Part shown: positions 836 through 56,190 of the stretch, in pieces
Layout of the letters: each line of letters opens with the position of its first letter
How positions within the stretch are numbered: position 1 is the stretch's first letter
Notes under the pieces: generated by a model
What the model was told of the DNA's origin: nothing
What the model saw: only the letters and a program-made list of their open reading frames with translations
Databases searched by the model: none
Translations under genes and position numbers: made by a program
Origin: an uncultured Bacilli bacterium
GTDB taxonomy: Bacteria; Bacillota_I; Bacilli_A; RF39; UBA660
DNA: 64,000 bases
Direction: 5' to 3'
Assembly: GCA_934098515.1 (NCBI GenBank)
Contig: CAKOOK010000003.1
Location: forward strand, 5,070 to 69,069

Positions 836-2557
836 CTACTTTACAATAAATGGATTTGCTTTAGTTCCATCTCCACCAATAATCTTAGCACTCTTAAGTT
901 GTAATGTTGGTCTTACTTTATTAGTATCAGTAACAACATTAGCTGTACCATCACCACCACCATATGATTTATATGATCCACCAGTAGAAACTGCATAACT
1001 ACTAGTATTAACATAATTATTATAAACATGAGCTTCTGGAGTACCATGGTTAAAGTTTGAAGTATCCATATTAAATCCAGTAATTTCAATTAACCAGAAA
1101 TTCTTACCAGTATTACTATTATTAGTTAAATAACTTCTATAACAATTATTACCATTACAATTAGCAACTTTACTATAATCATTCTTACTCATAAGAGCAA
1201 CCTTAGTATTAAGTGATCCACCACCAAATACAGTACCAGAAATATATTGATTCTCTACATATCTAGGATTAACCGCACTATAGAAACTATTAACTATATT
1301 ATCCATAGTATAACTAAATGCACCATTCAAATTATATCCACCTAATCCTTGATAATAATATCTTCCACCATTACAGCATCCACTATACTTACAAGCACCA
1401 ATCTGTCCATAAACCAAATCAGTTCTATTATTATAACTATAAGGATCATTAGCAATTATCTTAATACTATTACCCTTCTTATGATAAATTCTAAACATAT
1501 AAGAATTATTATTAAACTTCAAATAATTACTTTCTACTTCACCCTTAAAATAGCACTCATCAGTCTTACCAGCCTCTGGTGTACAATCACCATTAATAAA
1601 ATCTATTAAATTATCACTAACTACATATTCTAAAGTAAATGGACTAGGAACAGAACCATCACTATTAGTCTTATTATAACTAATAATTGCTTTCTTACTG
1701 CCTACTGGTTCAGTAACAAAACCTTTCATTGTAAAATCTGTAATATTATCTACAGGACTAGTAAATTCTTTCTTAGTACCATTCTTATAAGTAACAATTA
1801 ATGTAACCTTAGTATCCTTAGCCCCAAGAACTATCTTATTACCATTCTTATTTAAATAAGCAGTAAAACTATCAACATCATTCTCACTAGCAGCAACATA
1901 CACATTTCTAGTTTTGCTAACACTCTTACCATTATAAGTATAAGTATAAACAACACTATAACTACCAGCCTTAGTAACATCAACATTACAACTAGTAACC
2001 TTAATACTATCTCCCTTAACTAAAGGATAAGTCTTACTAGCATCATTTAAATCAGTTAAAACCAACTTACCATACTTAGAATCACTACTATTTAAACCCT
2101 TAAACTCATTTTCTTCAGTACACCAATTACTACCACTAGCATCATAAGCTAAATAAATAGAATCAGCAACTAAATAAGTATTAGTCTCATCAGCAGGATT
2201 AAGTTCAAACTCTGTAGCTCCCGTACTACCATTTAATGTAACACGAACAACTTCTTCATCTTTATACTTTTCATTAGTTTCCTTATTAGTAATATCTTCA
2301 CTAAGTAAACCATTACTTTTTAAATCCCCTATAGTAATATCTACAAAATTATATCCTTCATATAACTTCTCGATCTCACTCTTATTAGCACTAACATAAG
2401 CATCTGCTGCACTAAGTATCTGCTTAACAGTATCTTTATTATTCTCTTTAGGATCATTCTTACCAACTAAATTAACAATAAAAATACCAACAATAACTGC
2501 AATAAGTGCTATAACTGCAATTATCTCTACAAGTGTAAATCCTTTCTTATTCTTCAT
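836..2557 (-). CDS. large pilin-like protein: prepilin (class III) signal plus a non-diversified copy of the C-terminal module shared with P1/P2/P3
   Basis: The N-terminus MKNKKG|FTLVEIIAVIALIAVIV has the G-1/F+1/E+5 prepilin-peptidase motif followed by a hydrophobic helix. The C-terminal NYLKFNNNSYMFRIY...NKVRPTLQLKSAKIIGGDGTKANPFIVK aligns with NYVQFANKCWRIVRV...VRPSISLKSTTNVTGDGTSSSPFIIN of the paralogs. A GGAGGA RBS precedes the ATG. Confidence 0.75.
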   Translation of the reverse strand: MKNKKGFTLVEIIAVIALIAVIVGIFIVNLVGKNDPKENNKDTVKQILSAADAYVSANKSEIEKLYEGYNFVDITIGDLKSNGLLSEDITNKETNEKYKDEEVVRVTLNGSTGATEFELNPADETNTYLVADSIYLAYDASGSNWCTEENEFKGLNSSDSKYGKLVLTDLNDASKTYPLVKGDSIKVTSCNVDVTKAGSYSVVYTYTYNGKSVSKTRNVYVAASENDVDSFTAYLNKNGNKIVLGAKDTKVTLIVTYKNGTKKEFTSPVDNITDFTMKGFVTEPVGSKKAIISYNKTNSDGSVPSPFTLEYVVSDNLIDFINGDCTPEAGKTDECYFKGEVESNYLKFNNNSYMFRIYHKKGNSIKIIANDPYSYNNRTDLVYGQIGACKYSGCCNGGRYYYQGLGGYNLNGAFSYTMDNIVNSFYSAVNPRYVENQYISGTVFGGGSLNTKVALMSKNDYSKVANCNGNNCYRSYLTNNSNTGKNFWLIEITGFNMDTSNFNHGTPEAHVYNNYVNTSSYAVSTGGSYKSYGGGDGTANVVTDTNKVRPTLQLKSAKIIGGDGTKANPFIVK

Positions 2558-2565
2558 AAATCCTC

Positions 2566-3132
2566 CTATTTAATTTCCAATATATTATCATGCACAGCAC
2601 CTGACTTCTCATCAAAATACCCTAGCATGCTAACACTAAAATCATCTGCTAACCTTTTAAAAGAAATATAAACATTTCCCTTATCAAAGTTAACACTTAC
2701 TCCAGTGACATAACCATCACTCACACTTAAGTAACAATCATTAGCTTTGCCTTTAATAAACAAACTCTTCAAAAACTCCGGACTAGCTTCACACCTATAT
2801 CCATCACCACTTTCATCTATCTTAAACTTACTAACAATATCACCTAAATTAACATAACTAGTATCAGTATCATATCTATAATAACCACCATCTAAAGCAT
2901 AATACATTCCCTTACTATCCATATAGACAGTCTTGTCATCATAAATAACCCTACCAACACTCCCATCATAATCAAAACTCCTAGAATAACCATCACCATC
3001 ATACATAATACCTATCCTAGCACTATACTTATCATATACCTTAACACTATCACCCTTATTATAAAAAACAACAAAGATAACCGAACATATAACAACAAGC
3101 ATACCTATCAAATAAACATATTTCTTTTTCAT
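2566..3132 (-). CDS. membrane-anchored hypothetical protein (Y/D/G-rich ectodomain)
   Basis: ORF track entry 2566..3144. The more likely start is ATG at 3132 (MKKKYVYLIGMLVVICSVIF, single N-terminal TM), preceded by GGTGGTGA. It lies 8 nt upstream of the next gene, so co-transcription is likely. No family recognised. Confidence 0.55.
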   Translation of the reverse strand: MKKKYVYLIGMLVVICSVIFVVFYNKGDSVKVYDKYSARIGIMYDGDGYSRSFDYDGSVGRVIYDDKTVYMDSKGMYYALDGGYYRYDTDTSYVNLGDIVSKFKIDESGDGYRCEASPEFLKSLFIKGKANDCYLSVSDGYVTGVSVNFDKGNVYISFKRLADDFSVSMLGYFDEKSGAVHDNILEIK

Positions 3133-3271
3133 AATCACCACCAATGTTCAAAACACGTACCAAAACCTCTACTATTATTATTTATCTCTCTCGCATGTCA
3201 GTTTGTCCCTCGAAGGTTTTCTCAAAGGCATCTGCGACTGACGATTTCGACCTTTTAATTTCTCGCCTTGT

Positions 3272-4855
3272 TTACATATTTATTATGAATGGTGAACTAC
3301 TAGTTCCATCACCAGTTACGTTGGTCGTCGACTTAAGAGAAATTGAAGGACGAACGCCGTAGGCGTTGCCCACGCCGCTGTTGTCGAAGTTGCCATAGAT
3401 GGCGAAAACGAACCAAACGTAAGCGTAGCGGCCAATGAAGTAGCTAGGAGACAAAGAACACCAATTATCACTTGTAGCATTTTCTTGTAAATATGTAGTA
3501 GTATTTCCTGTTCCTATAGCATATCCTGCATACGCTAATTCATCTGCTGTTATTAATCCTACCTTTGATGTTATTTTACTTAACTCTCCATTACATATTA
3601 AACTAGGACCAGTGCCTCCAGCACTATTACTTTTACTTGATAATCTTTGTGTGGTGCCATAATATGTCTTGTTTGTGCCATATCCAAGTCCTGTTGGAGT
3701 TCCTCCGGACAACGGATTATAAGTAGTATCCGTCACATTTGTTTTATCATTACACCATACAGTATCATCTATTACTTTTTCATAATCTTTAAGATTATTC
3801 TTATCATACCAAGCCTCTAAATTAGTTAGTATCGTACTTTTATTGGTATTTGCATGTGTAGCTTCATATGTACTAGAGCCTGGTGTTCCATACTTAAATC
3901 CTACATAAGCATTGTCATTATCGTTTGAATTAAATGCACTTGTATATGTAGTACCAGAGTATCTAGCAAATGCTGCATTATCATTATTATTTGCTGGATC
4001 ACAAGGATTAGCTGCTCCGGCAGTATTATCATTATGTAAAATAAGTTTTACTGAACCATCTCCACCAACTCTTACTATTCTCCAGCACTTATTAGCAAAC
4101 TGTACATAGTTATTTGTTACAGCTCCTCTAAAATAATAGCTTGTTCCATAATCATCTTCTGCACTTGCAAGTAATGCCTCACTAGCAGTAGATATTGCTG
4201 CTCCTGGTGTAGTTATTGGAGTCTTTACTTCATTTTTTGCTAGTATTGCTTCACTTAAAGTAGGAACATATTCTGCAGCAACTACACTAACAACTATCTT
4301 ACCTTTCCAAGTTTTATTTAAACCTTGTTCATTAGTTGTTTCTGAATCTAACCAAAGTCTTAAATCAAAAGATTTTGCTTCTTTATTTTTAAGTCCTGTA
4401 GTTTTTAGTACATATCCCTCTGTATTAGTATCTACTTCCCCTAAAGAAAGTGTACTCAAGATTACTGAACTGCCATCATTAGTCCCTTTAGTTGATAAAT
4501 TAGTTTTAACATAATTATCTTTTAAATAAGCAGTGTTAGTACTAGTTCTATATTCACTAACTAGTGCTATAGTTACTTTAACATAACTATCACAATTATT
4601 AGTTAATGTAAAAGTAAATGGTGATTGTTTAAGTCCATCTTCATCACTTATTGGAAAAGCATCAGATAATACTATTTCACTTGTTTCTTCTGTTAAAGTA
4701 GTATCTAAACAAGTTCTTGTACCAATAACATTACTATTAGTTTGAGTTTTAGTAATTCTATAATAAGCATAAGTTACTCCAATAAGTACTAATACAGTTA
4801 CAAGTAATCCATATAAAATTGTTCTTTTCTTCTTTTCTTTCTCTATAATATCCAT
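3272..4855 (-). CDS. surface protein P1: TasA/camelysin-like signal and beta-sandwich plus a C-terminal lectin-like module with a hypervariable patch
   Basis: Long ORF. The likely start is ATG at 4855 (MDIIEKEKKK...) after AGGTGAGG. The N-terminus ...LIGVTYAYYRITKTQTNSNVIGTRTCLD resembles SipW-type signals (GGTFAYFSD...N.F..GTLDL). SFDLRLWLDSETTNEQG resembles the TasA/camelysin fold. The C-terminal half is near-identical to 40097-41401 and 54197-56121 (EALLASAEDDYGTSYYFRGAVTNNYV.FANKCWRIVRVGGDGSVKLILHNDNT). Confidence 0.7.
   Translation of the reverse strand: MDIIEKEKKKRTILYGLLVTVLVLIGVTYAYYRITKTQTNSNVIGTRTCLDTTLTEETSEIVLSDAFPISDEDGLKQSPFTFTLTNNCDSYVKVTIALVSEYRTSTNTAYLKDNYVKTNLSTKGTNDGSSVILSTLSLGEVDTNTEGYVLKTTGLKNKEAKSFDLRLWLDSETTNEQGLNKTWKGKIVVSVVAAEYVPTLSEAILAKNEVKTPITTPGAAISTASEALLASAEDDYGTSYYFRGAVTNNYVQFANKCWRIVRVGGDGSVKLILHNDNTAGAANPCDPANNNDNAAFARYSGTTYTSAFNSNDNDNAYVGFKYGTPGSSTYEATHANTNKSTILTNLEAWYDKNNLKDYEKVIDDTVWCNDKTNVTDTTYNPLSGGTPTGLGYGTNKTYYGTTQRLSSKSNSAGGTGPSLICNGELSKITSKVGLITADELAYAGYAIGTGNTTTYLQENATSDNWCSLSPSYFIGRYAYVWFVFAIYGNFDNSGVGNAYGVRPSISLKSTTNVTGDGTSSSPFIINM
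3311..3445 (-). other. GC-rich, A-depleted hypervariable patch inside P1 (DGR variable-region-like)
   Basis: The coding strand reads TTC ATT GGC CGC TAC GCT TAC GTT TGG TTC GTT TTC GCC ATC TAT GGC AAC TTC GAC AAC AGC GGC GTG GGC AAC GCC TAC GGC GTT CGT CCT. These NNC codons are atypical for the window. Flanks are conserved with the paralogs. Confidence 0.6.
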
Positions 4856-4876
4856 TAGCCTCACCTACTATAAACA

Positions 4877-5198: not shown

Positions 5199-5215
5199 GT
5201 AGCAAACTTTGCTAC
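5193..5215 (-). terminator. rho-independent terminator of the AlbA_2-like gene (overlaps its stop codon)
   Basis: On the minus strand: GTAGCAAAGTTTGCTAC hairpin (5199-5215) followed by TTTTTT. Confidence 0.65.
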
Positions 5216-6882
5216 TTCACTTTCCAACATGAACCACCTAACTCAGCATCATTATAAATTTTGCCTTGCTTTTTTAAGATATTTAGTAAATATCTAACCC
5301 TATTAATTTTACCAATTTCATCTAATGAATTAGGTAACTTATCTTTAAGTAAAGAAATAATTTCTTTTCTACTTGCTGAACCATATTCTTTTATATATTT
5401 AATTATTAGTTCCATATAAAACTCATTTTCTAATCCAGAATTATAAACATACTCTTCTTTCTTTTCAGTTAAACTAGCAAGACTTGATGAAATATAAATA
5501 TTTGGATATCTTCCTTCAATTAAATTATCTTTTTTTAGATAATCACTTTGCTGTTTGCTTATCGGGTATCTCTTTTGTAATCTATCAAGTAATATTATTG
5601 CACTAATATCTAAGTTTGTTCTTTCAAACAACAATCTACTATAATTTTCATCAATTATTTTTCCATATAATGTTACAATAACACGATTAGGATTACTTAA
5701 ATCATAATCAGGCATTGGAAAATATTTTTTCTTTTGAATATCATATACTCGTTTAATTCCACTACCAACTGTATCTATCATATTCAAATTAACCATCGCA
5801 CTTATTAAAAATGGATTCCTATAATATGGAGAAGAATATCCATCTTTTAAAACATTCTCAATTGTTTCCGGAATAAAACTACCTTCATTTATGATCATCA
5901 ATCTATCTGAATATTCAATTATATTAATGTTTCCATGAAGTCTGTAATCTTGATGAGCAATACAATTATTAATTAACTCACGAAGAATATAATTATCATA
6001 CTTATCTACTTCATAAGGAAATAAAGTTGCATCACTAATCATGTATCTATACTTTAAATTTCTAATCTTAGATTTTATTTTATCAATATTAATAATAAAA
6101 GGTATTCCAAAATGTTCATAATCAATCACATTAAAATCATCATAAAGTTTCCACGTCATTCGTGGAATATATCCTTCCATCAAATAGTCATAATCACTAT
6201 TTCCTAAAAGCAACATACAAGCCATAGTTATCTTATTATTAATTGTTAATCTCGCTTTATTTAAAAATTGAGTATCAGTCAAATTATCAACTTCATCTAT
6301 TAAATTATCATCTTTATGTTTAACTTTAAATTGTTCTCTAGCAACTTTAATCGCATCTTTATCAAGATTATCTATTGTAGCTTCTTCAAGAACTTGTCTT
6401 GACCAATCATAATTTATAGTAGTTTTAATTTGTTCAATCTTATTTAGTGATAAAGGAGATAATGACTCGCCTATTCTTCCATAAGGAAAGCCTTTCCAAT
6501 TAATTGGTGTTCCAGAGGCGGCTGGTACTTGAAACATTATCACTCTTTTACCATTAACAACTATCGTATAAATTTCAATAAAACTTATATTATCCGTAGT
6601 ATTGTCAGAAATTTGTTTTTTCACCTTATTAAAATCATTATCTATGCAATAATTAGTACTAGTTAACTCATGTGTTTTATCATCAACACCAAATATTATC
6701 CAAGAATAAAGTTTGTTTTTTAAATTAGCTTCATTACCTAAAGCCGAGAAATATTTTCCTAAGGTATCAACATCAAAATTATTTTTAGCTCTTTTAAACT
6801 CAACACATTCATTTTCAGAAACTTTTAATAGATTACTTAATATTACAAGTAGCTCCTCAGTTGTCTTATACAAACTTATCAC
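5212..6882 (-). CDS. AlbA_2 (Schlafen-type) domain plus HATPase_c_4-like putative DNA-binding/regulatory protein ('RecG-like' annotation class)
   Basis: The N-terminus ...VSENECVEFKRAKNNF... matches the E.EFK AlbA_2 motif. LRELINNCIAHQDY matches the RE...NA..HRDY motif of the associated ATPase-like domain. The C-terminal part looks wHTH-like. The start (GTG at 6882 or TTG 9 nt downstream) is uncertain. Confidence 0.55.
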   Translation of the reverse strand: MISLYKTTEELLVILSNLLKVSENECVEFKRAKNNFDVDTLGKYFSALGNEANLKNKLYSWIIFGVDDKTHELTSTNYCIDNDFNKVKKQISDNTTDNISFIEIYTIVVNGKRVIMFQVPAASGTPINWKGFPYGRIGESLSPLSLNKIEQIKTTINYDWSRQVLEEATIDNLDKDAIKVAREQFKVKHKDDNLIDEVDNLTDTQFLNKARLTINNKITMACMLLLGNSDYDYLMEGYIPRMTWKLYDDFNVIDYEHFGIPFIINIDKIKSKIRNLKYRYMISDATLFPYEVDKYDNYILRELINNCIAHQDYRLHGNINIIEYSDRLMIINEGSFIPETIENVLKDGYSSPYYRNPFLISAMVNLNMIDTVGSGIKRVYDIQKKKYFPMPDYDLSNPNRVIVTLYGKIIDENYSRLLFERTNLDISAIILLDRLQKRYPISKQQSDYLKKDNLIEGRYPNIYISSSLASLTEKKEEYVYNSGLENEFYMELIIKYIKEYGSASRKEIISLLKDKLPNSLDEIGKINRVRYLLNILKKQGKIYNDAELGGSCWKVK

Positions 6883-6996: not shown

Positions 6997-9900
6997 CTAA
7001 CTCTGAGTTCCATCATTTGTTTCTACTGTTATATCATAATCTGTATCATAATAATAATTACTAAATAAGACACTTGAATTATTAATTACTTTTCTTATAC
7101 CTAACTCTCCTCTACCATATATAGCATTTCTTTCAATAGATTTAACACTATAAGTTAAAGTTACCGTCTTAAGTATAATATTATTCATTAAAGCATAACT
7201 ACTAATATTTTCTGCATCTATTACATATTCTAACTTCTCATAATAACTAGGAACACTTATTAAAGTCGTACCATCCTTATTAAACAAAACTCCATCTTTA
7301 CTACTATAATTATTATTATCAGCACTAACTATAAATTTATTTATATTTAAGTTTATTCTAGACTCTATACTAGTAACTGAGCTTGGTACGCTAATATTCA
7401 TCTTCTTATCATCAGCACTTACTAATCCATTTAATGCATCATATATAATTCTCGTAGTCCCTTCTCTAATCAGTACATCACCTTCAAGTTTATCTGGCAC
7501 TAAAATAAGAACTTCACCATTATATAATATATTATTTTCTACTTCTAAAGTACTTGCTTTTATTTCTTTAAAGTTAACACCTCTAAATGGTGCTATACCT
7601 ACATAAGCATTTCCTATATCAGCACTTTCTCCTTTAAAGTTATAAAATGCATAATCTCCAATAGTTTGAACACTTCTAGGAATAACAATATTACCTAAAT
7701 TACTATCTATAAAAGCATAGTCTTTAATATACTGTAGTCCTTCATTAAATGTTACATTACTTAAACTAGTATTTGTACTAAAAGCATACTGTTCAATAGT
7801 TCTAACTGCACTTCCTATAGTAACACTTGCTAAATCTAAATTATTAGCAAATGCTCTCTTACCAATCGTTTCACTATTAACATTAAGCATCTTTAAACTA
7901 GTACTTTCAAAAGCCGATGTTCCAATAGATTTAACACTTGATGGAATATTAATATTAGTAATACCAGTTCCATAAAATGCATTATTACCAATACTACTAA
8001 CATTATTCCCAATAACAATATTATTAATTTGGCTCGCATAATTATCCCAAGGAGCACTTGTAAAATCTTCCATCTCTCCACTACCATACACACTTAATGT
8101 ATAGCCATTACTTCCGTCTATATCTTTATTATCATACAAGAATGCTATTACATCTTCTTTATTATTCTTACCTATCTTATAATAATCTACATATTCATAT
8201 TCAGCACTAACTATCTCACTAGAAATAACTCTTTTATTAACTAAACCATAAGTATCACTTATAGCTCCTTCACTTAAAGTTAGACTAAATGGTCCATAAT
8301 AATTATTTGCTTTTAATACAATCTCAAATCTATAACCATTACTTATATCAGCTACCTTTTTAACACTATCTACAACTACTCCACTACCAGTACTAATCAT
8401 TCCCTTATTAATAGAATCACTATCTAGTCCTCCACCAATATCAGTACAATTTAAATATGCCTTACCAGTTTTATATATATCTCTTGGTACATCTGTAAAT
8501 AAACAACTAGGTACTGGATTATCTGCTATTGCATAGTAAGTTGTCCCTTTATTTCTATTATTAATAGTAATCTTACTTCCAATACTTTTAATATTATCAC
8601 CACTAGGACTTGTACTCCAACCTTTTTTCGTTATACCATCAGGAACATCAAAATCAGGTAAAGTAACTGAGCACCCAAACCCTAGTACACTCTCTGTACA
8701 AGTAAGCGTTGTCTCATTTAAACTTCCATAAGTTCCCCCATTTAAATTAATCTGAAATACATTAGTAACATAAATAGGTATTCTAAGTTCTCCGCAATCT
8801 GCACCTTTAATAACTAAATAAGTAGTTCCAGTTCTGTATGATCTTATCTTTATCTTATCAGTAAACACCTTATTAATATTATCAGGCTCATATGAGAAAT
8901 TACTTCTTGATACTACATTAACACTAGCAGTCCAGCTATTACTAACACTATAACTTAATTTACCAGTAGCAGCATAACTAATCGTAATCTCTGCACTTTC
9001 CTTATTAACGCCTAAAGTAATTGAGTTAACATTACTCTTTAAAGAATAAACATTATAATCTAATTCAGCAAGTCTATTACCATTATTTTCCCTTAAAAAG
9101 ATTATTGCTTTTCCTGTATTAGTTCTACCTAACTTATAAGGTAAATTAATATTATACTGTTCACTAGTAACATTATGTCTTATAAGTGTTACTCCACCAT
9201 ACTTACCACCATTACTAGCACAATTATTAGTTAAATTAATTGCTGGCTGATTAGGATTACTACCTAAATCTACTAAATAATAATCACTCATACTATCAAA
9301 TACTATATTATTCTTCTTGCTATCACAAACTCTTCCACTAGCATCTAACACCCCTAAATTAATACCATGAATTGTTATTGTATTATTACTAAGACCAGAT
9401 TCTACATCCTTACATATCTTAGTAACCGTCTCATTATTCTCTTTAAAATATAAACTAGTCTTATAAATAACTGGAATATATATATCTAAAGAACCATCTT
9501 TCTCACTTCTAACATTAACCTTAAAATCTTCTACATTATCATAAATATCTTCACCACTAGTAGTTTCTAAAATAACAGTATCATTTTCCATATGACAATT
9601 TAAATAATCAGTATTTTCTACATATCCACCATAAGTACTTTTCTTATAAACAGTACAAGTAAAATCATTACTAGAGCTTCCATTTATCTTAGACTTAAAC
9701 TGTGTCTTATCATTATTTTGTCTTCTTCCCCCATTAAAATATAAATACTCTGGCACCTCTGTATTATCAAGTTTAATATTAGAAACATTAACATCAAAAC
9801 TAGTCTCACCACATAAAGAACCTTTAATTGTAACTTTAACACTTCCAATACCATTACCTTTTATATAAAAGTAATTCTGATTATTTAAAGTTATTGTACT

Positions 9901-11034
9901 TCCAAAAGAACTATTATTTGCAGATATACTAGCAGCACTACTATCAACTGATACAGTTAAACTTCCAGTACCACCTGCATTAAGATTAATCTTTTTAGCA
10001 GCCTCACCAACTATAACATTTGTAATATGTGTTGTAACACTTAAATCATAAACTTGTCTAATAATAGTCTTACTAATACCTGCATGATTCTCTGTTATAT
10101 TAAAACTCTTTTCCCCAGTGCTAGTACCACTACTCATATATAGAACGTCTCCCTTTATAGTAGCATTTAAATCATCACTAATCCCACTAAGAGAAAACTC
10201 TCCATAATTCCTTCCCGTAATTCTAAAAAGATCATTAGTCAGTGTCTTCATACACATCTTAGGTGTATACCCATCAATATCATAATTAACAACATACACC
10301 CCTAAATTCATATGTCTATAAAGTTTCTTCTCCTTACTATCTTCATAATAAGTACCAATAACTCTAACTTGATAATTACCATCAGTACCACTTCCAGACT
10401 TATCATTTAAAGTAAGTATTAAATCATCACCATCAACCTTACAAGTAAAAGGACCAGTTACTTCACAAGTAATACTTTTAAAAGTACCCTTAGTATAAAT
10501 CTTAGTCTTATACTCCTCATGCGTTCCCCAATAAAAATCTTTCTTCGTCGCATTTAAATTAAGTGAATAATTACCACTCTCACTAACTGCTGGGCATGAA
10601 TAATAATCAGCATTAACATCATATAAAGTAGCACTAACTGTTATAGTATGTGGATCATAACAAAGAAGCACTTTACCATCAAGCCTTCCCCCACTAACCG
10701 GATTACCAATAAAACTAGCATCCCCCTTAGTAGTATCATACTCTAAATAACCATACCTAACTAAATCATCAACACTAACAATACAATCATCATAAGCATC
10801 CTTATTAATAGCCCCAGACTCAAGTGCATTAGTACACTTCTGATAAGTATTAATATTATCCTCACCATACTTAGAAGCACTAGTTTCAATAGTACTAATC
10901 TTAGAATTTAAAATACTCTCCTTAGTATTCTTAGATATATTAGTAACCGCTGGTATCAAAATAACCATAATAATTGAAAGAATTGTAATAACCGCAAGAA
11001 GTTCTACCATTGTAAAACCTTTATGGTCCCTCAT
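6997..11034 (-). CDS. giant (1345 aa) pilin-like adhesin: prepilin signal, repeated Ig-like regions, C-terminal BspA-type leucine-rich repeats
   Basis: MRDHKG|FTMVELLAVITILSIIMV is a canonical class III signal with E+5. The C-terminal ~380 aa hold repeated ...IGNNAFYGTGITNINIPSSVKSIGTSAFESTSLKMLNV...IGKRAFANNLDLASVTIGSAVRTIEQYAF... units, which are LRR_5/BspA-like. Confidence 0.75.
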   Translation of the reverse strand: MRDHKGFTMVELLAVITILSIIMVILIPAVTNISKNTKESILNSKISTIETSASKYGEDNINTYQKCTNALESGAINKDAYDDCIVSVDDLVRYGYLEYDTTKGDASFIGNPVSGGRLDGKVLLCYDPHTITVSATLYDVNADYYSCPAVSESGNYSLNLNATKKDFYWGTHEEYKTKIYTKGTFKSITCEVTGPFTCKVDGDDLILTLNDKSGSGTDGNYQVRVIGTYYEDSKEKKLYRHMNLGVYVVNYDIDGYTPKMCMKTLTNDLFRITGRNYGEFSLSGISDDLNATIKGDVLYMSSGTSTGEKSFNITENHAGISKTIIRQVYDLSVTTHITNVIVGEAAKKINLNAGGTGSLTVSVDSSAASISANNSSFGSTITLNNQNYFYIKGNGIGSVKVTIKGSLCGETSFDVNVSNIKLDNTEVPEYLYFNGGRRQNNDKTQFKSKINGSSSNDFTCTVYKKSTYGGYVENTDYLNCHMENDTVILETTSGEDIYDNVEDFKVNVRSEKDGSLDIYIPVIYKTSLYFKENNETVTKICKDVESGLSNNTITIHGINLGVLDASGRVCDSKKNNIVFDSMSDYYLVDLGSNPNQPAINLTNNCASNGGKYGGVTLIRHNVTSEQYNINLPYKLGRTNTGKAIIFLRENNGNRLAELDYNVYSLKSNVNSITLGVNKESAEITISYAATGKLSYSVSNSWTASVNVVSRSNFSYEPDNINKVFTDKIKIRSYRTGTTYLVIKGADCGELRIPIYVTNVFQINLNGGTYGSLNETTLTCTESVLGFGCSVTLPDFDVPDGITKKGWSTSPSGDNIKSIGSKITINNRNKGTTYYAIADNPVPSCLFTDVPRDIYKTGKAYLNCTDIGGGLDSDSINKGMISTGSGVVVDSVKKVADISNGYRFEIVLKANNYYGPFSLTLSEGAISDTYGLVNKRVISSEIVSAEYEYVDYYKIGKNNKEDVIAFLYDNKDIDGSNGYTLSVYGSGEMEDFTSAPWDNYASQINNIVIGNNVSSIGNNAFYGTGITNINIPSSVKSIGTSAFESTSLKMLNVNSETIGKRAFANNLDLASVTIGSAVRTIEQYAFSTNTSLSNVTFNEGLQYIKDYAFIDSNLGNIVIPRSVQTIGDYAFYNFKGESADIGNAYVGIAPFRGVNFKEIKASTLEVENNILYNGEVLILVPDKLEGDVLIREGTTRIIYDALNGLVSADDKKMNISVPSSVTSIESRINLNINKFIVSADNNNYSSKDGVLFNKDGTTLISVPSYYEKLEYVIDAENISSYALMNNIILKTVTLTYSVKSIERNAIYGRGELGIRKVINNSSVLFSNYYYDTDYDITVETNDGTQS

Positions 11035-11044
11035 AAACTCACCT

Positions 11045-11569
11045 CTATTCTACTATCTTAAAATAAATATTAGATGTAAAATCATTCCCATTAGATGCAA
11101 GCATTTTAACCCTTAACTCATTAAGCCCACTATTATTAAAAGAATTATACAGAACAAAATTTGCTTCATCTATAATTGCTCCCTCTGGAAGCTTTCGCAC
11201 AAAATTACGTGCCATCTCATCACTAGTTAAATTAGTATTAACATACTCATACTTAATATAACCAGCATCACTAGTTAAAGAAAGCCTCTTCATAATATGC
11301 TCACTTAAATTACTTTCTCTATAAGCATTAAAAGTAATAATTACGCTCTTATTACCATCTATCTCTATTTTATTAACCCCATATCTATTAATATCTGTAC
11401 TTACCGCATCAATCAAAAGTGTATTTAACACCTCAAAATCAACCTCTAACTTACTCTTTTTATATAAACCATTAACCGTAATTAATAACCTTGTAACAAA
11501 AATAAGAATAATAGATACCAGCACTATAGACACAATAATCTCAACAAGAGTCATTCCCTTCTTATTCAT
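11045..11569 (-). CDS. minor pilin-like protein (prepilin-type N-terminus)
   Basis: The likely start is ATG at 11569 (MNKKG|MTLVEIIVSIVLVSIILIF), which overlaps the upstream stop in an ATGAATAA arrangement. E+5 is present. Confidence 0.7.
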   Translation of the reverse strand: MNKKGMTLVEIIVSIVLVSIILIFVTRLLITVNGLYKKSKLEVDFEVLNTLLIDAVSTDINRYGVNKIEIDGNKSVIITFNAYRESNLSEHIMKRLSLTSDAGYIKYEYVNTNLTSDEMARNFVRKLPEGAIIDEANFVLYNSFNNSGLNELRVKMLASNGNDFTSNIYFKIVE

Positions 11570-12071
11570 CACTATCACCAAACCTTAATGAAGCATACTG
11601 ATAAATAGTCGGATTACTATTATAATTATTCTCATCTTCAAACATCACAATAATTCTATATCCACTATCACTAGTAGGATCTAACTTCTTTATATAATTC
11701 TGCGTAGTAGCTTCCAAACTAGATAAATCATTAACACTTAAATCACTAGTATCCCACTTAGTAATATATATAGAGTTTATATGCATATTACTAACCATTG
11801 CTTTAAAATAAGCATCACCCTTACCTAAACAATCACTAGATCCCTGACAATACATATATACATCAGCACCCTCATAACCACTAAAATTACTACTCTCTAA
11901 ATACTCTTTAACCAAATTAGTCTTATAAATATACTCTGTATTATCATAATAACTCTTTCTTTGCACTGCACTAATAACATTCATATAACCCCCATAAAGC
12001 ATAATTAACAATACACACAAAACAAGAATAACAACAATAGTCTCTACCAAAACAAAACCATTCTTCTTCAT
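11562..12071 (-). CDS. minor pilin-like protein (prepilin-type N-terminus)
   Basis: MKKNG|FVLVETIVVILVLCVLLIML has G-1, F+1 and E+5. Confidence 0.7.
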   Translation of the reverse strand: MKKNGFVLVETIVVILVLCVLLIMLYGGYMNVISAVQRKSYYDNTEYIYKTNLVKEYLESSNFSGYEGADVYMYCQGSSDCLGKGDAYFKAMVSNMHINSIYITKWDTSDLSVNDLSSLEATTQNYIKKLDPTSDSGYRIIVMFEDENNYNSNPTIYQYASLRFGDSDE

Positions 12072-12080
12072 ATTACCTCC

Positions 12081-13001
12081 TTAATTATGCTTAAAACTAA
12101 TACTACACTTACTATCATGACCATTATTTCTATATTTAAATAAATACTTAGTATTACTCTCATTACTTATTGGACTAACCTCATAATCATCATAATTACA
12201 ACTAACTTTATCAAGAACATAACCCGCATAAGGAACAACCGTAAAAGATACCTCATCATCATCCACAAAATCCTTACTAATAAAAGAAACAGTCCCATCA
12301 AAATAATCTATATTCTTATCAAGCCACTCCAAACTAACCGCATCCCTATAAGCATAAGTAACATCCATAAGAAAAATATTAGTATAATAAGTTCTACTAG
12401 AATTATAAGCACTCTCCTTACCTACAATCATATAACTTAAAGTCTCAGCACCACTTAAACTAACAAGCTTAGAAGTACTTACCCATTCACTACTATTAGA
12501 ACTACTAATAATCCTATCCCTATCTATAACATCACCACTTACCGTATTAGAAACAAACACATCACTGGTATAACCTATACTAGGCTGATAATATTCCATA
12601 CGAAGATAATACTTATGAGAAGCATCTACACTAATTGGCTGAGACAAATTACCACTAGAACCCGTCTTAATAACGCACCTCTTACCAAAATCAGCAGCCT
12701 GAAAATTACCCCCACCTTGAACACTCCAATCAGTAAGATTATTACTACCATCAACACTACTAAAATTACCATTACGTACCAAATTAGTAATCGTCTTACC
12801 TCCATCAACACTAGCATAAGAAACATACAAACTTATCTTACCAATACCACCATTAAGCTTAGACTGAGTATCACTATTATACCTATCCAAAATAGTCTTA
12901 TTCGCAATATAATTACTCAAAAGAGCCGTCAAAATAGCAATAAAAGCAAGAAAAAAAGTATAAATCAAACTAGTAGCAATAAACCCACTCTTATTCTTCA
13001 T
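12081..13001 (-). CDS. pilin-like protein lacking Glu+5, with a CBM-like jelly-roll region
   Basis: MKNKSG|FIATSLIYTFFLAFIAILTALL has G/F and a hydrophobic helix but Ser at +5. NLVRNGNFSSVDGSNNLTDWSVQGGGNFQAADFGKRCVIK resembles the N-G-.-F-...-W start of CBM4/9-type sugar-binding modules. It is the first gene after the operon promoter. Confidence 0.55.
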   Translation of the reverse strand: MKNKSGFIATSLIYTFFLAFIAILTALLSNYIANKTILDRYNSDTQSKLNGGIGKISLYVSYASVDGGKTITNLVRNGNFSSVDGSNNLTDWSVQGGGNFQAADFGKRCVIKTGSSGNLSQPISVDASHKYYLRMEYYQPSIGYTSDVFVSNTVSGDVIDRDRIISSSNSSEWVSTSKLVSLSGAETLSYMIVGKESAYNSSRTYYTNIFLMDVTYAYRDAVSLEWLDKNIDYFDGTVSFISKDFVDDDEVSFTVVPYAGYVLDKVSCNYDDYEVSPISNESNTKYLFKYRNNGHDSKCSISFKHN

Positions 13002-14727: not shown

Positions 14728-15954
14728 TTACTTACCAATATAGTATTTCTTCTTACCCTTACGTACTATTAAATATTTATTATACAATAACTTATCGCTA
14801 GTAATTACTTCACCTTCATCACTAACTTTTTCACCATTAATACTAATACTTCCTGCACTTATAAACTCTCTTGCTTCTCTTTTGCTAGAACATATATTAG
14901 CATTTATTAACATATCAATAACCTTATCACCAATGTTCACATCAAATGAAGGAGCTCCCTTAAAGGCATCTTCTAATTCATCTTCACCTAAAAGTGTAAT
15001 ATCACCTTTAAATAAACAATCACTAATCTTTTTAGCTTTTAAATACTCATCCTTACCATGAATATCAGTAATAATCTCTCTAGCTAAAGCAATATGAGCT
15101 TCTCTTGCTTCTGGATGCTCATTATTCTTTCTTTCATATTCTAGAATTTCCTCTCTACTTAAGAAAGTAAATATCTTTAAATAATCAATAACCAGTGAAT
15201 CATCCACATTAACTAAGTACTGATATAACTCATAACTGGAAGTCTTACTTTTATCTAACCATAGAGCATTACCTTCACTCTTACCAAACTTCTTACCAGT
15301 CTTATCAAGAACAAGTGGCATCGTAAACCCATAAGCTTCCTTACCAGTAATCTTCCTAATTAAATCAATACCAGTTGTAATATTACCCCACTGATCAGAA
15401 CCTTCTGCTTGAAGTACACAATTCTTATCTTCAAATAATCTTAAGAAATCATAACCTTGAATTAAAGTATAAGAAAACTCTGCATAAGTAATACCTGTCT
15501 CTAATCTTCTTCTAATAATATCTTTATCTAGCATATAATTAACATTAATATACTTACCAACATCTCTTAAGAAATCTAAAAATTCATAACCTTTAAACCA
15601 ATCATAATTATTAACTAATTCTGCCTTGCCATCAAATAAAGCACTAACTTGTTTAGAAATACCTTCTAAGTTTTTATTAAGAGTCTCTTTACTAATAATT
15701 TCTCTTTCAGCAGTTGGTCTAGGATCTCCAATAAGTCCTGTAGCTCCACCAATAAGTAAAATTGGATGATGACCTGCTTTAGCAAGTCTTTTCGCAGTAA
15801 CAAGTGATGAGTAATGTCCTAAATGCAAACTATCTGCAGTTGGATCTGTTCCCCAGTAAAAACTAATTGGTTCTCCATTTAATAACTTCTCAATATCTGG
15901 ACTACTAACATCTTTAACAAGTCCTCTCCATTTTAAATCTTCAAATAAATTCAT
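14728..15954 (-). CDS. tyrS: tyrosine--tRNA ligase
   Basis: Class I aaRS with HLGH (SLHLGHY) and KFGKS motifs, a C-terminal S4-like domain, and an upstream T-box leader. Confidence 0.95.
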   Translation of the reverse strand: MNLFEDLKWRGLVKDVSSPDIEKLLNGEPISFYWGTDPTADSLHLGHYSSLVTAKRLAKAGHHPILLIGGATGLIGDPRPTAEREIISKETLNKNLEGISKQVSALFDGKAELVNNYDWFKGYEFLDFLRDVGKYINVNYMLDKDIIRRRLETGITYAEFSYTLIQGYDFLRLFEDKNCVLQAEGSDQWGNITTGIDLIRKITGKEAYGFTMPLVLDKTGKKFGKSEGNALWLDKSKTSSYELYQYLVNVDDSLVIDYLKIFTFLSREEILEYERKNNEHPEAREAHIALAREIITDIHGKDEYLKAKKISDCLFKGDITLLGEDELEDAFKGAPSFDVNIGDKVIDMLINANICSSKREAREFISAGSISINGEKVSDEGEVITSDKLLYNKYLIVRKGKKKYYIGK

Positions 15955-15965
15955 AATATCTCCTC

Positions 15966-16580
15966 CTATAATATATCTTTTAATTTCTTTATATTATTTA
16001 TTGTACTATCAGTATTTTCATTATCTTTACTTATATAAATAGTTTTCATTCCAAGTGCTTTAGCTGGACTAATATCACTAGATAAACTATCACCAACCAT
16101 TACACATTCATCATAATTATCATTTTCTCTAGCTAAATCAAAAAACTCTTTATTAGGTTTAATTCCATATTCACACCCATATATATTCTTAAAATATTTA
16201 TCTAAGCAGTGGTATCGTAATCTCCCCTTTTGAGCAGCAGTATACCAATTAGTAAGTACTACTAAAGTATACTTCTTACTTAAATAATCAAGAACATCAC
16301 TAGTATCATCATTTAATAAAGTTGAATATCCTGCATAAATATCTAAACATCTATTTAAATCATCTTTACTAAACATAATCTTTAATCTATCACTAATATA
16401 TTTAGAAAGTTCATCTTTATCAAATCCAATACCCTTTAACTCAAATTCTCCAATAACATCATAAAACATCTTAGGCTTAATATTAGGATAATCTTTTAAA
16501 AACTCTGTATAAGCACTTATACAATCTTTATATGTATCTAAAAGGGTATTATCTACATCAAATATAATTCTCTTAATCAT
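15966..16580 (-). CDS. HAD-superfamily hydrolase
   Basis: MIKRIIFDVDNTLLDT (DxDxT motif I) ... VVLTNW ... VGDSLSSDI (motif IV). The start is moved to ATG 16580 (RBS GGAGGA) because the track start at 16604 lies inside the T-box terminator. Confidence 0.75.
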   Translation of the reverse strand: MIKRIIFDVDNTLLDTYKDCISAYTEFLKDYPNIKPKMFYDVIGEFELKGIGFDKDELSKYISDRLKIMFSKDDLNRCLDIYAGYSTLLNDDTSDVLDYLSKKYTLVVLTNWYTAAQKGRLRYHCLDKYFKNIYGCEYGIKPNKEFFDLARENDNYDECVMVGDSLSSDISPAKALGMKTIYISKDNENTDSTINNIKKLKDIL

Positions 16581-16592
16581 ATATTCCTCCAC

Positions 16593-16722
16593 AAAAAAAA
16601 TCATAAACTAAAGGACGAATAAAATCCGCGGTACCACCTTAATTCATGATTACATGCTCTCTTAATCTTATCGCGATCTCACGCTTTAGCTCCAAGGTCG
16701 TAAATCTCTTCATCACTAACAA
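16593..16722 (-). promoter_or_regulatory. T-box leader (Tyr) with terminator/antiterminator; promoter TTGAAA-17-TATACT at 16727-16755
   Basis: The minus strand contains the T-box sequence AATTAAGGTGGTACCGCG (16627-16644). This is followed by a terminator helix (AUCAUGAAUUAAGG...CCUUUAGUUUAUGAU) and U8. A candidate UAC specifier lies at 16700-16702. Stem I looks unusually short. Confidence 0.75.
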
Positions 16723-16801
16723 ACATAGTATATCAAATGAAAATATTTATTTCAAGCAAAAAAACTTGTATAAATTAGCTTTAATGTAGTATAATTAATT
16801 T

Positions 16802-16895
16802 AAGGAAGAGCACTAACCCCTGAAAGTTAGGCTTCTCCAGATTGTTTTCTTTTGAAGCTACTTAACAGGTAATGTTAGTAGCTTCTTTTATTTTA
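16802..16895 (+). ncRNA. candidate antisense small RNA (type I antitoxin-like)
   Basis: Promoter TTGTAT (16766-16771), 18 nt, TATAAT (16790-16795). No ORF. Terminator hairpin GAAGCTACT...AGTAGCTTC (16854-16885) plus TTTTATTTT, which overlaps the stop codon of the convergent 29-codon ORF. Confidence 0.5.
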
Positions 16896-16982
16896 TCTAA
16901 AAATAATAACAATTACCTTTAAAATAATTAAAAGGACGATTATGATAATTAAATTATCTAAAATAGATTTTAATTTTTTCAT
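16893..16982 (-). CDS. 29-aa hydrophobic peptide (type I toxin-like)
   Basis: Own translation: MKKLKSILDNLIIIIVLLIILKVIVIIFR. SD AAGGGAG lies 8 nt before the ATG. Promoter TTGCAT (17066-17071), 17 nt, TAATAT (17043-17048). Not in the supplied track (too short). Confidence 0.5.
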   Translation of the reverse strand: MKKLKSILDNLIIIIVLLIILKVIVIIFR

Positions 16983-17152
16983 ATACATCACTCCCTTCTT
17001 TTTAAGACGGGAGAAGCCTAACATAGTACTCTTCGAGTAGGTATATTATCATAAACATCAAACACATGCAAGCCCTTTAATTATGCTGGTTTGCAGACTT
17101 TTAAAATCTGTAATTACCATATAAAAAAAGATAGCACTTTAAGCATGCCATC

Positions 17153-17440
17153 CTATAACTTTTCAATAACTGCTGCATTCTTCTCTAAGCATCTAATCAA
17201 ATCAGCATGATCATACTTTTCAAAGATTGCTCTAAATCTATCTGGATTTATAAAGAACATATGAGTATGTCCCATAAACACCTCTTTATAATTCTTAATT
17301 CCAATACCTTTCAAATAAGCATAATTTTCTTTAACTAATGATGGAAACAATTTAAGTTTCTCAATAACACTTGCTTCACTAGAACCATTAATCATTGTAA
17401 TATCATCATCAGTTAATCCTAAATCTTTTAAATAATTCAT
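17153..17440 (-). CDS. hypothetical protein (95 aa)
   Basis: ORF with start/stop overlap (ATTATC...) with the upstream gene. No family recognised. Confidence 0.5.
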   Translation of the reverse strand: MNYLKDLGLTDDDITMINGSSEASVIEKLKLFPSLVKENYAYLKGIGIKNYKEVFMGHTHMFFINPDRFRAIFEKYDHADLIRCLEKNAAVIEKL

Positions 17441-18867
17441 TATCTATTACCTCCTAAATCATTCAAATGCTTAGCTTTAACAATTAAATCAGTAATATTT
17501 GCTTCACTAACCTTAGGTCCATAACTCTTTATAACTTCATTTAAATCAAAACTATTAATAAGTGGAAGTGCTGATAATACATAACTTATATTACTAGTAG
17601 TTTGTCCAGCAAGTAAAAGTTTACTAATTACATGCTCTATCTCAGCTGGTGTACTTGTCGTAAATAAATCTGCTGAATCATAAATAGCATCTAACTTAAT
17701 ATTATTTCTCTTAAGTACATCAAATACTTTCTTATACATCTCTTTATTATAATTACTCTTTAATCTATCTTGATCAGTAGCTGTAAACTTATGATAATCA
17801 ACACCATTCTCAGTAAATAAATTAGCAAGTTCTTCAGTTTCATCATTAGAAGGAGTAACAGGTTCAAAACTTAAACTATTATCTTTAACTTCATCCTTCT
17901 TATCATCAAGAGGTGCCTCAGGCTCAGCATTTAAATCAGCTTCACTTAACCCTTCAAAACTAAAGCCTCCATCAAACACATTAGTACTAGGCTCAAAAAT
18001 ATTTACAGTTTCAGGCTTAACACCAGCATTTACTTCAGTCTTAACATTCTCTACTACAGGCTCTGTTTTCTTTTCTTCCTCTTTTACCTCTGGTTCCTTT
18101 TCACTTTCCTTAGATTCCTCTTCATCTAAACCCGTACCAAAAATACTAGCATACTCATTATCTATAGAATCATTTAAAGCTTTAAAATCAATCTTCTGAT
18201 AATCACTTGAAGGCTCCTCTAAAACTTTCTCATCGCTTACTGAATTATCACTAACAGTAGCCTCTTCTTCTGGTTCATCCATCTTACTTATCTCATCAAA
18301 CACTGGACTATCCAAATTAACATCATCATACTTCTTAACCTCAAAAGTAGGTTCAAATATTAAGTTCTCTGGGTTTTCAGACGCAAAATCAACAATACGA
18401 TTTAACTCTTTAGAATAGTACTCTAATGCCTTAGAATAATTATTTAATCTATCAGTCTTAATCTCTTTATCCTTCTTTAAATTAATTAGTAAGTCTTTAA
18501 TAGCTCTTGCTTTCTCAGTAAGTTCACCAATCTTTTCACGATACTTAGTAATCTCATTTTGTTTAGCAATCATCTTAGCATTAATCTCTTTATTACCAGC
18601 CTCAACAATCGCATTTAAATCTTTCTTACCAAATCTTTCGTTTAAATCAGTTAAATCTACTTCAAGTGCTTTAATTTCTTCTTCTAAAGACTTAATTTTC
18701 TCCTTAGCATTATCAACATCATTCTTATATCCTTTAGCTTCATCTATTTTCTTATCAATCTTAGACTTAACATCATCCAAAGCCTTCTCAGAATCACTTT
18801 TCTTAGTTTCCAACTCACTAATAATTGCTTTTAACTTACTATTTATTTCATTTATCAAGTTTATCAT
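17440..18867 (-). CDS. coiled-coil / acidic low-complexity protein (475 aa)
   Basis: The N-terminal ~170 aa are heptad-rich (K/E/L). The middle is E/P/V-rich. The C-terminal globular part resembles the downstream 95-aa protein in style. No family recognised. Confidence 0.5.
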   Translation of the reverse strand: MINLINEINSKLKAIISELETKKSDSEKALDDVKSKIDKKIDEAKGYKNDVDNAKEKIKSLEEEIKALEVDLTDLNERFGKKDLNAIVEAGNKEINAKMIAKQNEITKYREKIGELTEKARAIKDLLINLKKDKEIKTDRLNNYSKALEYYSKELNRIVDFASENPENLIFEPTFEVKKYDDVNLDSPVFDEISKMDEPEEEATVSDNSVSDEKVLEEPSSDYQKIDFKALNDSIDNEYASIFGTGLDEEESKESEKEPEVKEEEKKTEPVVENVKTEVNAGVKPETVNIFEPSTNVFDGGFSFEGLSEADLNAEPEAPLDDKKDEVKDNSLSFEPVTPSNDETEELANLFTENGVDYHKFTATDQDRLKSNYNKEMYKKVFDVLKRNNIKLDAIYDSADLFTTSTPAEIEHVISKLLLAGQTTSNISYVLSALPLINSFDLNEVIKSYGPKVSEANITDLIVKAKHLNDLGGNR

Positions 18868-44231: not shown

Positions 44232-44242
44232 ACGCCTCCATT

Positions 44243-44427
44243 AAAAAACGGTCCTACATCCAAAGGACGAAAGACCGTGGTACCACCTTAATTTATACTC
44301 TAAGTTTTAAAGGCCCTCACCTAACACATCCAAAAGCAAGTTCATAAATCTTTATTGTTAACTTCCACCACCCGTTAACTCTCTTTAAAATAAATAATTT
44401 ACTACTACTCTTTCTTCATCTGCTTAA
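44243..44427 (-). promoter_or_regulatory. T-box leader (Leu); promoter TTGAAT-17-TATAAT at 44433-44461, overlapping the GH31 gene 3' end
   Basis: On the minus strand: AGAGAG and GGUGGUGGAA stem I motifs, T-box AAUUAAGGUGGUACCACGG (44275-44293), and terminator ACGGUC...GACCGU plus U6. Leu codons CUU/UUG in GAACUUGCUUUUGG are candidate specifiers. Confidence 0.8.
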
Positions 44428-53932: not shown

Positions 53933-54148
53933 AAAAAAGCCCATAATCTAAGGACGAGTCAAACCCGTGTTACCACCTTAGTTTATGAACTTATTTCATA
54001 CACTCATTATCTATAACGTAGATACCGTACTATACTTATCCTATAGTAACATCCGAAGTGATCCTTAATACTTCCAGTATACTTACTTTCACCACAACGT
54101 AAGCTCTCTAAATACCTTTCATATCAACGTCTTCATCAACTGCTTATG
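53933..54148 (-). promoter_or_regulatory. T-box leader (Ile); promoter TTGACA-17-TATAAT at 54155-54183
   Basis: On the minus strand: UGAUGAAG K-turn region, AGAGAG, GGUGAAAG distal loop, and specifier AUC-A at 54060-54062 closed by CUUC/GAAG. Also T-box AAACUAAGGUGGUAACACGGG, a terminator and U6. Confidence 0.85.
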
Positions 54149-56121: not shown

Positions 56122-56190
56122 TATAATCACCTTATATTCTATAAAAATTATAAAATATAAAGACATAAAATTCAAGAAGAAATATAATAT

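Follow-up and report, generated by a model that had tools for sequence, protein, structure and literature searches.

How does one protein module come to be carried by several different N-terminal scaffolds in a small bacterial genome, and which of its copies are still being diversified? This question is raised by a 64,000-nt stretch (hereinafter termed the window) of contig CAKOOK010000003.1 from an uncultured Bacilli bacterium of the RF39 lineage. On its minus strand the window encodes a pilin-fused protein at 836–2557 (PIL) and three further proteins at 3272–4855 (P1), 40097–41401 (P2) and 54238–56175 (P3), to which an earlier note on this DNA had attributed a common C-terminal module. Our analysis indicates that the four proteins probably belong to an adhesin family built by domain shuffling around a DUF6273-type head, in which P1 is a live target of a diversity-generating retroelement (DGR), P2 and P3 are fossil targets, and PIL is an old static copy mounted on a minor type IV pilin.

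The shared module and its DUF6273-class relatives

The module is present in all four proteins, as the earlier note had stated, with the pilin copy far more distant than the other three. In P1, P2 and P3 it comprises ~300 aa at 59–74% identity, and the three copies are 71–88% identical at the DNA level. A tblastn search of P1 against the window aligns P2 at 74% identity over 334 aa (E 1e-138) and P3 at 59% identity over 301 aa (E 4e-94), with an additional match between the N-domains of P1 and P3 (35% over 226 aa, E 7e-38). In PIL, the same plain search reaches no further than the last 25 aa (52%, E 4e-4). When a 40-sequence alignment of PIL-family C-termini is compared by hhalign with a 58-sequence alignment of the module, the PIL head (aa 315–573; 839–1615) matches with a probability of 98.8% (E 1.1e-15) over 217 columns at 27% identity, from the 'CYFKGEVxxNYxKF..FRIY' strands to the 'VRPTLQLK..GGDGTxxNPF' tail. 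Because the profile–profile match is this strong while the plain search aligns 25 aa, the PIL C-terminus is judged from these alignments to be a true but remote homologue of the module and not a close repeat of it. The four copies can accordingly be treated as one homologous binding-type domain, as had been proposed.

The family extends well beyond the window. A profile of the module finds 6142 representative proteins of 258–4905 aa (50% clustering), and related genomes carry ~10–15 copies each. Relatives of P1, P2, P3 and PIL come from metagenome-assembled genomes of uncultured human-gut 'Tenericutes' or Bacilli, and the largest contigs that carry them are 1.15–1.2 Mb long (related contigs or strains are labeled L0xx, related proteins P0xxx and template repeats TR). 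Other pilin fusions of the module include P0178 and P0179, in which a prepilin is joined to two tandem canonical modules, and the 1454-aa fusion P0290; further architectures contain Flg_new repeats or an ALK/LTK glycine-rich domain. We also note a fifth family member ~4–6 kb beyond the first base of the window, seen in L071 at 15666–17558, where it follows an arylsulfotransferase gene and an AAA_21/RloB pair. It is split into two open reading frames (ORFs), one of 176 aa with a camelysin-like N-domain and one of 434 aa with an insert domain and the module.

Sequence comparison identifies the module as a likely expanded DUF6273-class C-type-lectin-like domain. Pfam searches at E up to 0.1 return no DUF6273 (PF19789) match for P1, P2, P3 or PIL, and the membership of the window proteins follows from their homology to relatives that do match: 8 of 52 P1 orthologues and 5 of 35 paralogues (cut-off 23.5 bits). 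P0269 scores 49.1 bits, and the paralogue in L015 scores 27.5 bits, its residues 466–557 covering profile positions 75–171 of 172. Whether a given copy matches hinges on its variable residues. Work on Firmicute phages describes DUF6273 as a C-type-lectin-like domain found in DGR targets, its C-terminal end containing the variable region (PMC10743442, PMC11792537), and the C-type lectin fold that we assign to the module is taken by analogy from this literature. A sequence-profile search of the PDB gives no match below E 1. The AlphaFold2 model of PIL has a mean predicted local distance difference test score (pLDDT) of 81.6, and its head lies mostly above 90.

Confined variation in P1 and static patches in P2, P3 and PIL

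P1 comprises 527 aa, consisting of a transmembrane (TM)/signal segment, a camelysin/TasA-like beta-sandwich and the DUF6273-type module. Its ORF spans 3272–4864 and orthologues start at the ATG at 4855; residues of the variable region are given in a 530-aa numbering. The variable region, delimited by orthologue variation, strain comparison and adenine bias, corresponds to aa 465–504 (3353–3472, minus strand; G+C fraction 0.51). Across 120 orthologues the N-domain is almost invariant, and residues 474–502 accommodate 10–15 residue types at alternating positions, with fixed residues such as F476, G478, V483, W484 and G491 among the variable ones. The closest allele to P1 (P0002) differs at 23 residues, 22 of which lie within 465–502. 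At the nucleotide level, a comparison of the gene and its downstream spacer with L077 reveals 37 differences, all of them within nt 1384–1497 of the gene (114 nt). Because these changes are so confined and the other ~1590 nt of the ~1.7-kb stretch are identical, the pattern implies very recent targeted mutagenesis. Such hypervariability, limited to a short C-terminal stretch among near-identical genes, marks P1 as a DGR target.

Smaller hotspots of variation with 8–13 residue types are found outside this region, at residues 313–315, 385–388 and 450–453 of P1 (~3920–3928, 3701–3712 and 3506–3517, respectively); they may be loops that flank the binding face.

A pattern search for the predicted template uncovered template repeats rich in AAC, which form two families, in contigs from gut metagenomes. 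In L019 and L055 the repeats have a family member on one side and, on the other, the genes of a MutS-domain-I protein, an Avd-like protein and a reverse transcriptase, and these cassettes yield MutS_I, weak bAvd-like and RVT_1 matches. The P1 variable region differs from its nearest template repeats, which belong to other strains or species, by 18–19 mismatches at adenines versus 6 elsewhere (p ~3e-6). The bias is more pronounced for the orthologue in L079, which shows 18 adenine-site mismatches to TR56 versus 1 at other sites (p 2.6e-9). Given the confined variation, the adenine bias and the lack of a cassette in the window, P1 appears from its sequence to be a remote DGR target whose cassette lies elsewhere.

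Immediately after the P1 stop codon lies a conserved non-coding element of ~120 nt (3153–3271, minus strand), recognized by megablast and sequence comparison. It is 82–91% identical by megablast to sequences in L055, L056, L059, L061, L062, L067 and L070, and the same element follows cassette-proximal DGR targets in L019, L055, L056, L061 and L065 and there runs on into the template repeat. Sequence comparison finds it absent after P2 and P3, and inspection by eye reveals no convincing stem of a conserved covarying hairpin. The element may act in cis in target recognition, or else be what remains of a cassette.

The earlier note had held that the pilin copy alone lacks a GC-rich patch and that variable and constant versions of the module coexist, with P1, P2 and P3 on the variable side. 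The composition agrees: the patches of P2 (40172–40285, G+C 0.56) and P3 (54271–54375, 0.50) resemble that of P1, and the equivalent stretch of PIL (0.32) lies close to the genome value of ~0.30. The coexistence also stands, although the dividing line falls elsewhere, as P1 alone varies in the population. Members of the P2 cluster carry up to 16 substitutions, none in the patch, and members of the P3 cluster carry 35–48, with one real change in the patch; both patches also show many non-adenine mismatches to every template repeat found. The patches of P2 and P3 are frozen relics, static in the population. P2 and P3 were considered as live DGR targets in their own right, and the constancy of their patches among cluster members rules this out.

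P3 is moreover decaying. At the 3′ end of its relic region, near 54265 and just after 'LRPA', a –1 frameshift (one A missing in GCA[A]TATCT) truncates the protein to 627 aa, and the canonical tail ISLVSSIKVTGEGTSENPYKVV can be read in another frame down to 54197 (54197–54270). With at least 21 contigs carrying the truncated form, the frameshift is no assembly error; intact 641-aa forms exist in other strains. A different state of the locus is seen in L065 (3280–3830) and L052, from a strain 96–97% identical to the window around ileS. There the P3 gene is complete with a different variable region and is followed by a ~230-nt spacer and an almost unmutated AAC-rich template-like copy. This copy has the 5′ flank typical of template repeats, yet it is joined to the gene's 3′ end, and there is no reverse transcriptase gene after it. 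This arrangement could be a product of recombination between template and target, or a mis-assembly.

No hypervariable positions are present among 22 PIL orthologues. When PIL is compared with P0121, its nearest relative at 98% identity, all 10 amino acid differences fall at residues 483–542, in the stretch equivalent to the variable patch (aa 483–545; 923–1111), and together they form one allelic block common to many other orthologues. PIL displays ordinary allelic variation, and its head is an old homologue that was never recently diversified.

Carriers of the module and the pilin operon

PIL (573 aa) has the organization of a modular minor type IV pilin, with a prepilin signal, a pilin domain, two immunoglobulin (Ig)-like domains and the divergent lectin-like head. 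Its N-terminal cleavage/methylation motif, MKNKKGFTLVEII..., is encoded at 2483–2557 on the minus strand (PF07963, residues 1–25). The prepilin-type signal that had been read from the letters is upheld by above-threshold matches to N_methyl (PF07963; 27.1 bits, cut-off 21.2) and TIGR02532 (23.1 bits, cut-off 16.3) and by the presence of the motif in 38 of 38 PIL homologues. The signal is of class III, reading MKNKKG up to the cleavage site and FTLVEII after it, with a short basic leader, G-1, F+1, E+5 and a hydrophobic alpha-1 N-terminal segment. Bact_surface_Ig-like matches are found in 33 of the 38 family members. Large modular pilins of this kind are commonly assigned to the tip of the filament, and PIL would be expected to occupy this position on a type IV filament.

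PIL is encoded together with other pilins, since three more pilin-like genes lie at 6997–12071. The rest of the pilin operon (6997–13001, minus strand) contains a 1345-aa pilin with BspA-type leucine-rich repeats (LRRs), two small pilin-like proteins and a 306-aa ORF. The 1345-aa protein (6997–11034), with a prepilin N-terminal motif and BspA-type LRRs (LRR_5, E 1e-57), is a second giant modular pilin of this operon and is kept in distant relatives. Directly upstream of PIL, on the same strand, a small membrane-anchored ORF is retained (2566–3144; 192 aa, called 188 aa elsewhere), which has no family match in Pfam or NCBIfam. P1 lies within the operon together with a Schlafen AlbA_2/HATPase_c_4 gene (5212–6882, minus strand), which is present in L071 and L077 and absent in L079.

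Gene order in the operon is common to L071, L075, L076 and L079. In distant relatives the operon runs from small pilins through the giant LRR pilin and the small ORF to the PIL homologue and an arylsulfotransferase gene, and P1 is absent; in the window's species cluster P1 follows the giant pilin and precedes the small ORF, and the Schlafen-type gene may be present or missing. As the distant relatives have the operon without P1 and the species cluster has it with P1, the adjacency of P1 and PIL reflects a stable lineage-specific insertion of P1 into a conserved pilin operon and not an ancestral partnership. The suggestion that P1 and PIL are adjacent in one transcription unit therefore holds for the neighborhood, with the qualifications that the 192-aa ORF separates them and that P1 is an insertion. 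We found no terminator-like site between P1 and this ORF, and a promoter-like site is present there. The promoter scan decides nothing, because it returned 45 promoter-like sites in comparison with 40.8 in shuffled sequence; co-transcription of P1 and PIL is possible.

The carriers of the other three copies are membrane-anchored N-terminal regions of differing complexity. At the N-terminus of P1 and P3, a basic and hydrophobic segment precedes a beta-sandwich, which in P1 (4265–4855, minus strand, almost invariant among orthologues) is modeled with pLDDT 75–88. P3 contains in addition a ~95-aa insert domain between this N-domain and the module, and its start is probably at 56121. P2 (434 aa) has only a TM anchor and a small domain of ~75 aa ahead of the module, in line with the short N-terminal anchor described for it, and this small domain recurs as an insert in longer family members.

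A TasA/camelysin-like signal and beta-sandwich had been assigned to P1 and P3. The sandwich itself is plausible: 9 of 35 paralogues match Peptidase_M73 (18–22.5 bits, cut-off 22.5) over profile positions 6–190 of 196, the one in L005 reaching the cut-off at 22.5 bits, and the P1-type N-domain aligns with these paralogues by hhalign at 98.0% probability (E 1.7e-13). In many paralogues the hydrophobic stretch is also followed by a '...G(V/L)SYAFF(S/T)A...' motif. For the two proteins themselves, Pfam yields no Peptidase_M73 match and NCBIfam, searched at E up to 1, no match to the SipW-type signal TIGR04088. A Foldseek search of the P1 model against the PDB places no TasA entry in the top 50, with all matches at E 1e-3 or weaker; the best of these weak matches are the donor-strand pilins of chaperone-usher systems (PapG pilin domain, FimG and CfaB), Pgp3 and CanA. 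Because paralogues match Peptidase_M73 while P1 and P3 match neither model and Foldseek finds no TasA, we regard the camelysin/TasA-like label as plausible but borderline.

Proposed mechanism, alternatives and related systems

In the mechanism that we propose, the module would have been shuffled onto many N-terminal carriers within a lineage of uncultured human-gut Bacilli. At P1, copying of a template repeat, error-prone at its adenines, would produce cDNA that replaces ~115 nt close to the gene's 3′ end, altering ~17 residues on the presumed binding face and leaving the rest of the gene untouched. The cassette, consisting of the template repeat and the genes for the MutS-domain-I protein, the Avd-like protein and the reverse transcriptase, would lie outside the window, and is seen in the related contigs only. 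P1, P2, P3 and PIL would act as surface adhesins or lectins, with PIL carried on a type IV filament and P1–P3 tethered to the membrane by their N-terminal segments, the beta-sandwich serving as a stalk; ligand binding and surface display are thus predicted for all four.

Several observations weigh against this interpretation. The window contains no template repeat detectable by short-word blastn of the three patches or by a scan for AAC-rich frames, and Pfam scans of 47 window ORFs reveal no reverse transcriptase; pilus assembly genes and a prepilin peptidase are likewise absent from the window ORFs scanned. Six non-adenine mismatches separate P1 from the nearest template repeats, which are those of other strains or species. 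Four assemblies 99.99–100% identical to the window (L072–L074 among such assemblies) carry the identical P1 variable region and therefore give no evidence of ongoing DGR activity in the window strain. P1, P2 and P3 reach no Pfam threshold (nor, in NCBIfam, do they match any model). In the AlphaFold2 model of P1, built from a 40-sequence alignment, pLDDT is below 50 for residues 202–516, and Foldseek searches of the PIL model against the PDB and BFVD are dominated by Ig-repeat proteins by way of its two Ig-like domains, so that the C-type lectin fold and the exposure of the patch are to be read as predictions. Part of this evidence would suit a situation in which the DGR has ceased to act here, P1 alleles are inherited or recombined from strain to strain, and the four adhesins have all become static. 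Besides the missing cassette, the six mismatches and the identical variable region in four assemblies from different samples, this explanation could draw on the fact that the spacer, which in cassette-linked targets runs on to the template repeat, is reduced to ~120 nt at the P1 locus, and on the frozen state of P2 and P3 with the decay of P3. We consider it unlikely though tenable, because the 37 differences from L077, all in the variable region, imply that targeted mutagenesis took place very recently, because remote targets of DGRs are known, which makes a cassette elsewhere in the ~1.2-Mb genome the simpler reading, and because P1 alone retains the conserved downstream element. A DGR is thus probably still active in the window genome. 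That P1–P3 are instead phage receptor-binding proteins in prophages, as the mainly phage-borne described DUF6273 targets (PMC10743442, PMC11792537) might lead one to expect, is hardly credible: the window is ordinary chromosome, with tyrosyl-, leucyl- and isoleucyl-tRNA synthetase genes, rpsD, rpoA, a T-box leader and one tRNA, the three proteins have N-terminal membrane segments, and a tblastn search with the module finds no match in 50,697 phage records.

As to the carriers, the earlier note had envisaged display on fibers, which would require the N-domain to work as in TasA, with SipW-type cleavage and donor-strand exchange placing a diversified head on a TasA-like filament. The aromatic motif of the paralogues, their Peptidase_M73 matches across the whole profile with L005 at the cut-off, the homology of the P1 N-domain to these paralogues and the weak structural matches to donor-strand pilins and CanA all lean this way, and TasA fibers do form by donor-strand exchange (PMC9674648). 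We nevertheless find this idea doubtful, given that P1 and P3 match neither Peptidase_M73 nor TIGR04088, that no TasA structure appears among the top 50 fold matches, that no signal peptidase, of the SipW class or any other, and no stand-alone TasA-like major subunit is recognized among the window ORFs scanned, and that P2 carries the module without a camelysin-like domain. A bolder and improbable elaboration would combine, in these gut Bacilli of reduced genome, two filament systems with an adaptable and a constant head: one trans-acting DGR would feed at least 10 paralogous heads, P1 would be mounted by donor-strand exchange on a TasA-type fiber whose genes lie within the type IV pilin operon, the same operon providing the display of a fixed head, and the ~120-nt element would mark the 'live' copy for mutagenic homing. 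For PIL, the likeness of its C-terminus to the module might be due to chance or convergence in the 'VRPxxxLK...GxGTxxxP' tail, in keeping with the 25-residue tblastn alignment and with DUF6273 matches in 0 of 38 PIL family members. The hhalign match, which extends over 217 columns from strands to tail, makes this very improbable, and a search with a joint profile returns the PIL orthologue P0130 (94% identity to PIL) at E 9e-70, albeit with PIL contributing to that profile.

The membrane-anchored adhesin family that we favor has partial counterparts in several known systems. It shares with the DUF6273 targets of Firmicute phages (tentaclins and Faecalibacterium prophage targets) the Pfam class, the position of the variable region at the C-terminus of the domain, AAC/AAT-rich template codons and the possible service of more than one target by one template repeat. 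It differs from them in being chromosomal, membrane-anchored and borne by camelysin-like or pilin carriers, in a domain of ~300 aa as opposed to the 172-position Pfam profile, and in its ~10–15 copies per small genome. Treponema denticola TvpA and Legionella LdtA are surface-anchored proteins with a C-terminal C-type lectin variable region and a chromosomal DGR. The window proteins resemble them in their predicted surface anchoring, in the C-terminal position of the variable region and in a presumed chromosomal DGR; unlike TvpA and LdtA, which are lipoproteins with folds of the FGE/DUF1566 type, they form a large paralogous family in which most copies are frozen. The N-domains of P1 and P3 have in common with TasA/camelysin (Peptidase_M73) fiber subunits an N-terminal hydrophobic signal, an aromatic-rich motif and a ~170-aa beta-sandwich, with the borderline whole-profile matches of the paralogues; unlike those subunits, P1 and P3 score below threshold, have no SipW, TapA or major subunit nearby and carry a large C-terminal lectin-like module, which to our knowledge is absent from TasA and camelysin.

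The earlier note had not recognized the arrangement as a described one; analogues are described among modular type IV pilins (PMC8179133, PMC9934059) and Bacteroides type V pilins (bioRxiv 10.1101/2024.11.15.621889). Streptococcus sanguinis PilB and PilC are modular type IV pilins with a grafted adhesin or lectin module (PMC8179133, PMC9934059). Like PIL, they are minor pilins with a class III signal and a pilin domain, encoded in an operon with other minor pilins; the graft in PIL differs in being DUF6273-like and accompanied by two Ig-like domains, and PIL is known here from sequence alone. In Bacteroides, DGR-diversified and static C-type lectin heads are borne by type V pilins (bioRxiv 10.1101/2024.11.15.621889). 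As in BfrT, BthT, BunT and the static tip pilin BovFim1C, the lectin head in our family is placed on a pilus subunit or a minimal N-terminal carrier, diversified and static versions coexist, and the cassette includes a MutS-like accessory protein (Msl in Bacteroides) beside Avd and the reverse transcriptase. The differences lie in the phylum, in the use of type IV prepilin and camelysin-like carriers in place of lipoprotein type V pilins, and in the window's allotment of the static copy to the pilin and the diversified copy to a non-pilin carrier.

The family thereby extends a known principle, in which C-type lectin heads on modular surface carriers are in part DGR-hypermutated and in part fixed (as in Bacteroides type V pili and phage tails), to another phylum and another display machinery. 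Full-text literature searches returned no paper for DGR together with TasA and none for DGR together with RF39; since the former was empty, the fusion of a camelysin/TasA-like domain to a lectin-like head as a DGR target may be undescribed. With a live target (P1), two frozen relics (P2 and P3) and an ancient static homologue (PIL), a single genome provides a natural comparison set, which could reveal the cis elements that keep a remote DGR target active, the candidate being 3153–3271. The module family takes up a noticeable share of a ~1.2-Mb genome, which suggests that attachment matters greatly to these organisms.

The window has a G+C content of ~30%, and its minus strand holds most of the genes. 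The T-box leader lies upstream of ileS (53947–54148, 98.1 bits), and extra copies of the conserved T-box 3′ motif, below the Rfam threshold, are found upstream of a HAD-hydrolase gene and tyrS (16584–16649) and upstream of a 117-aa ORF and leuS (44233–44298). At 56191–57632, two neighboring and partly duplicated genes encode RhuM-family N-terminal regions, one of them also with a Fic/DOC domain, and contain direct repeats that are 82–90% identical at a spacing of 485–491 nt.

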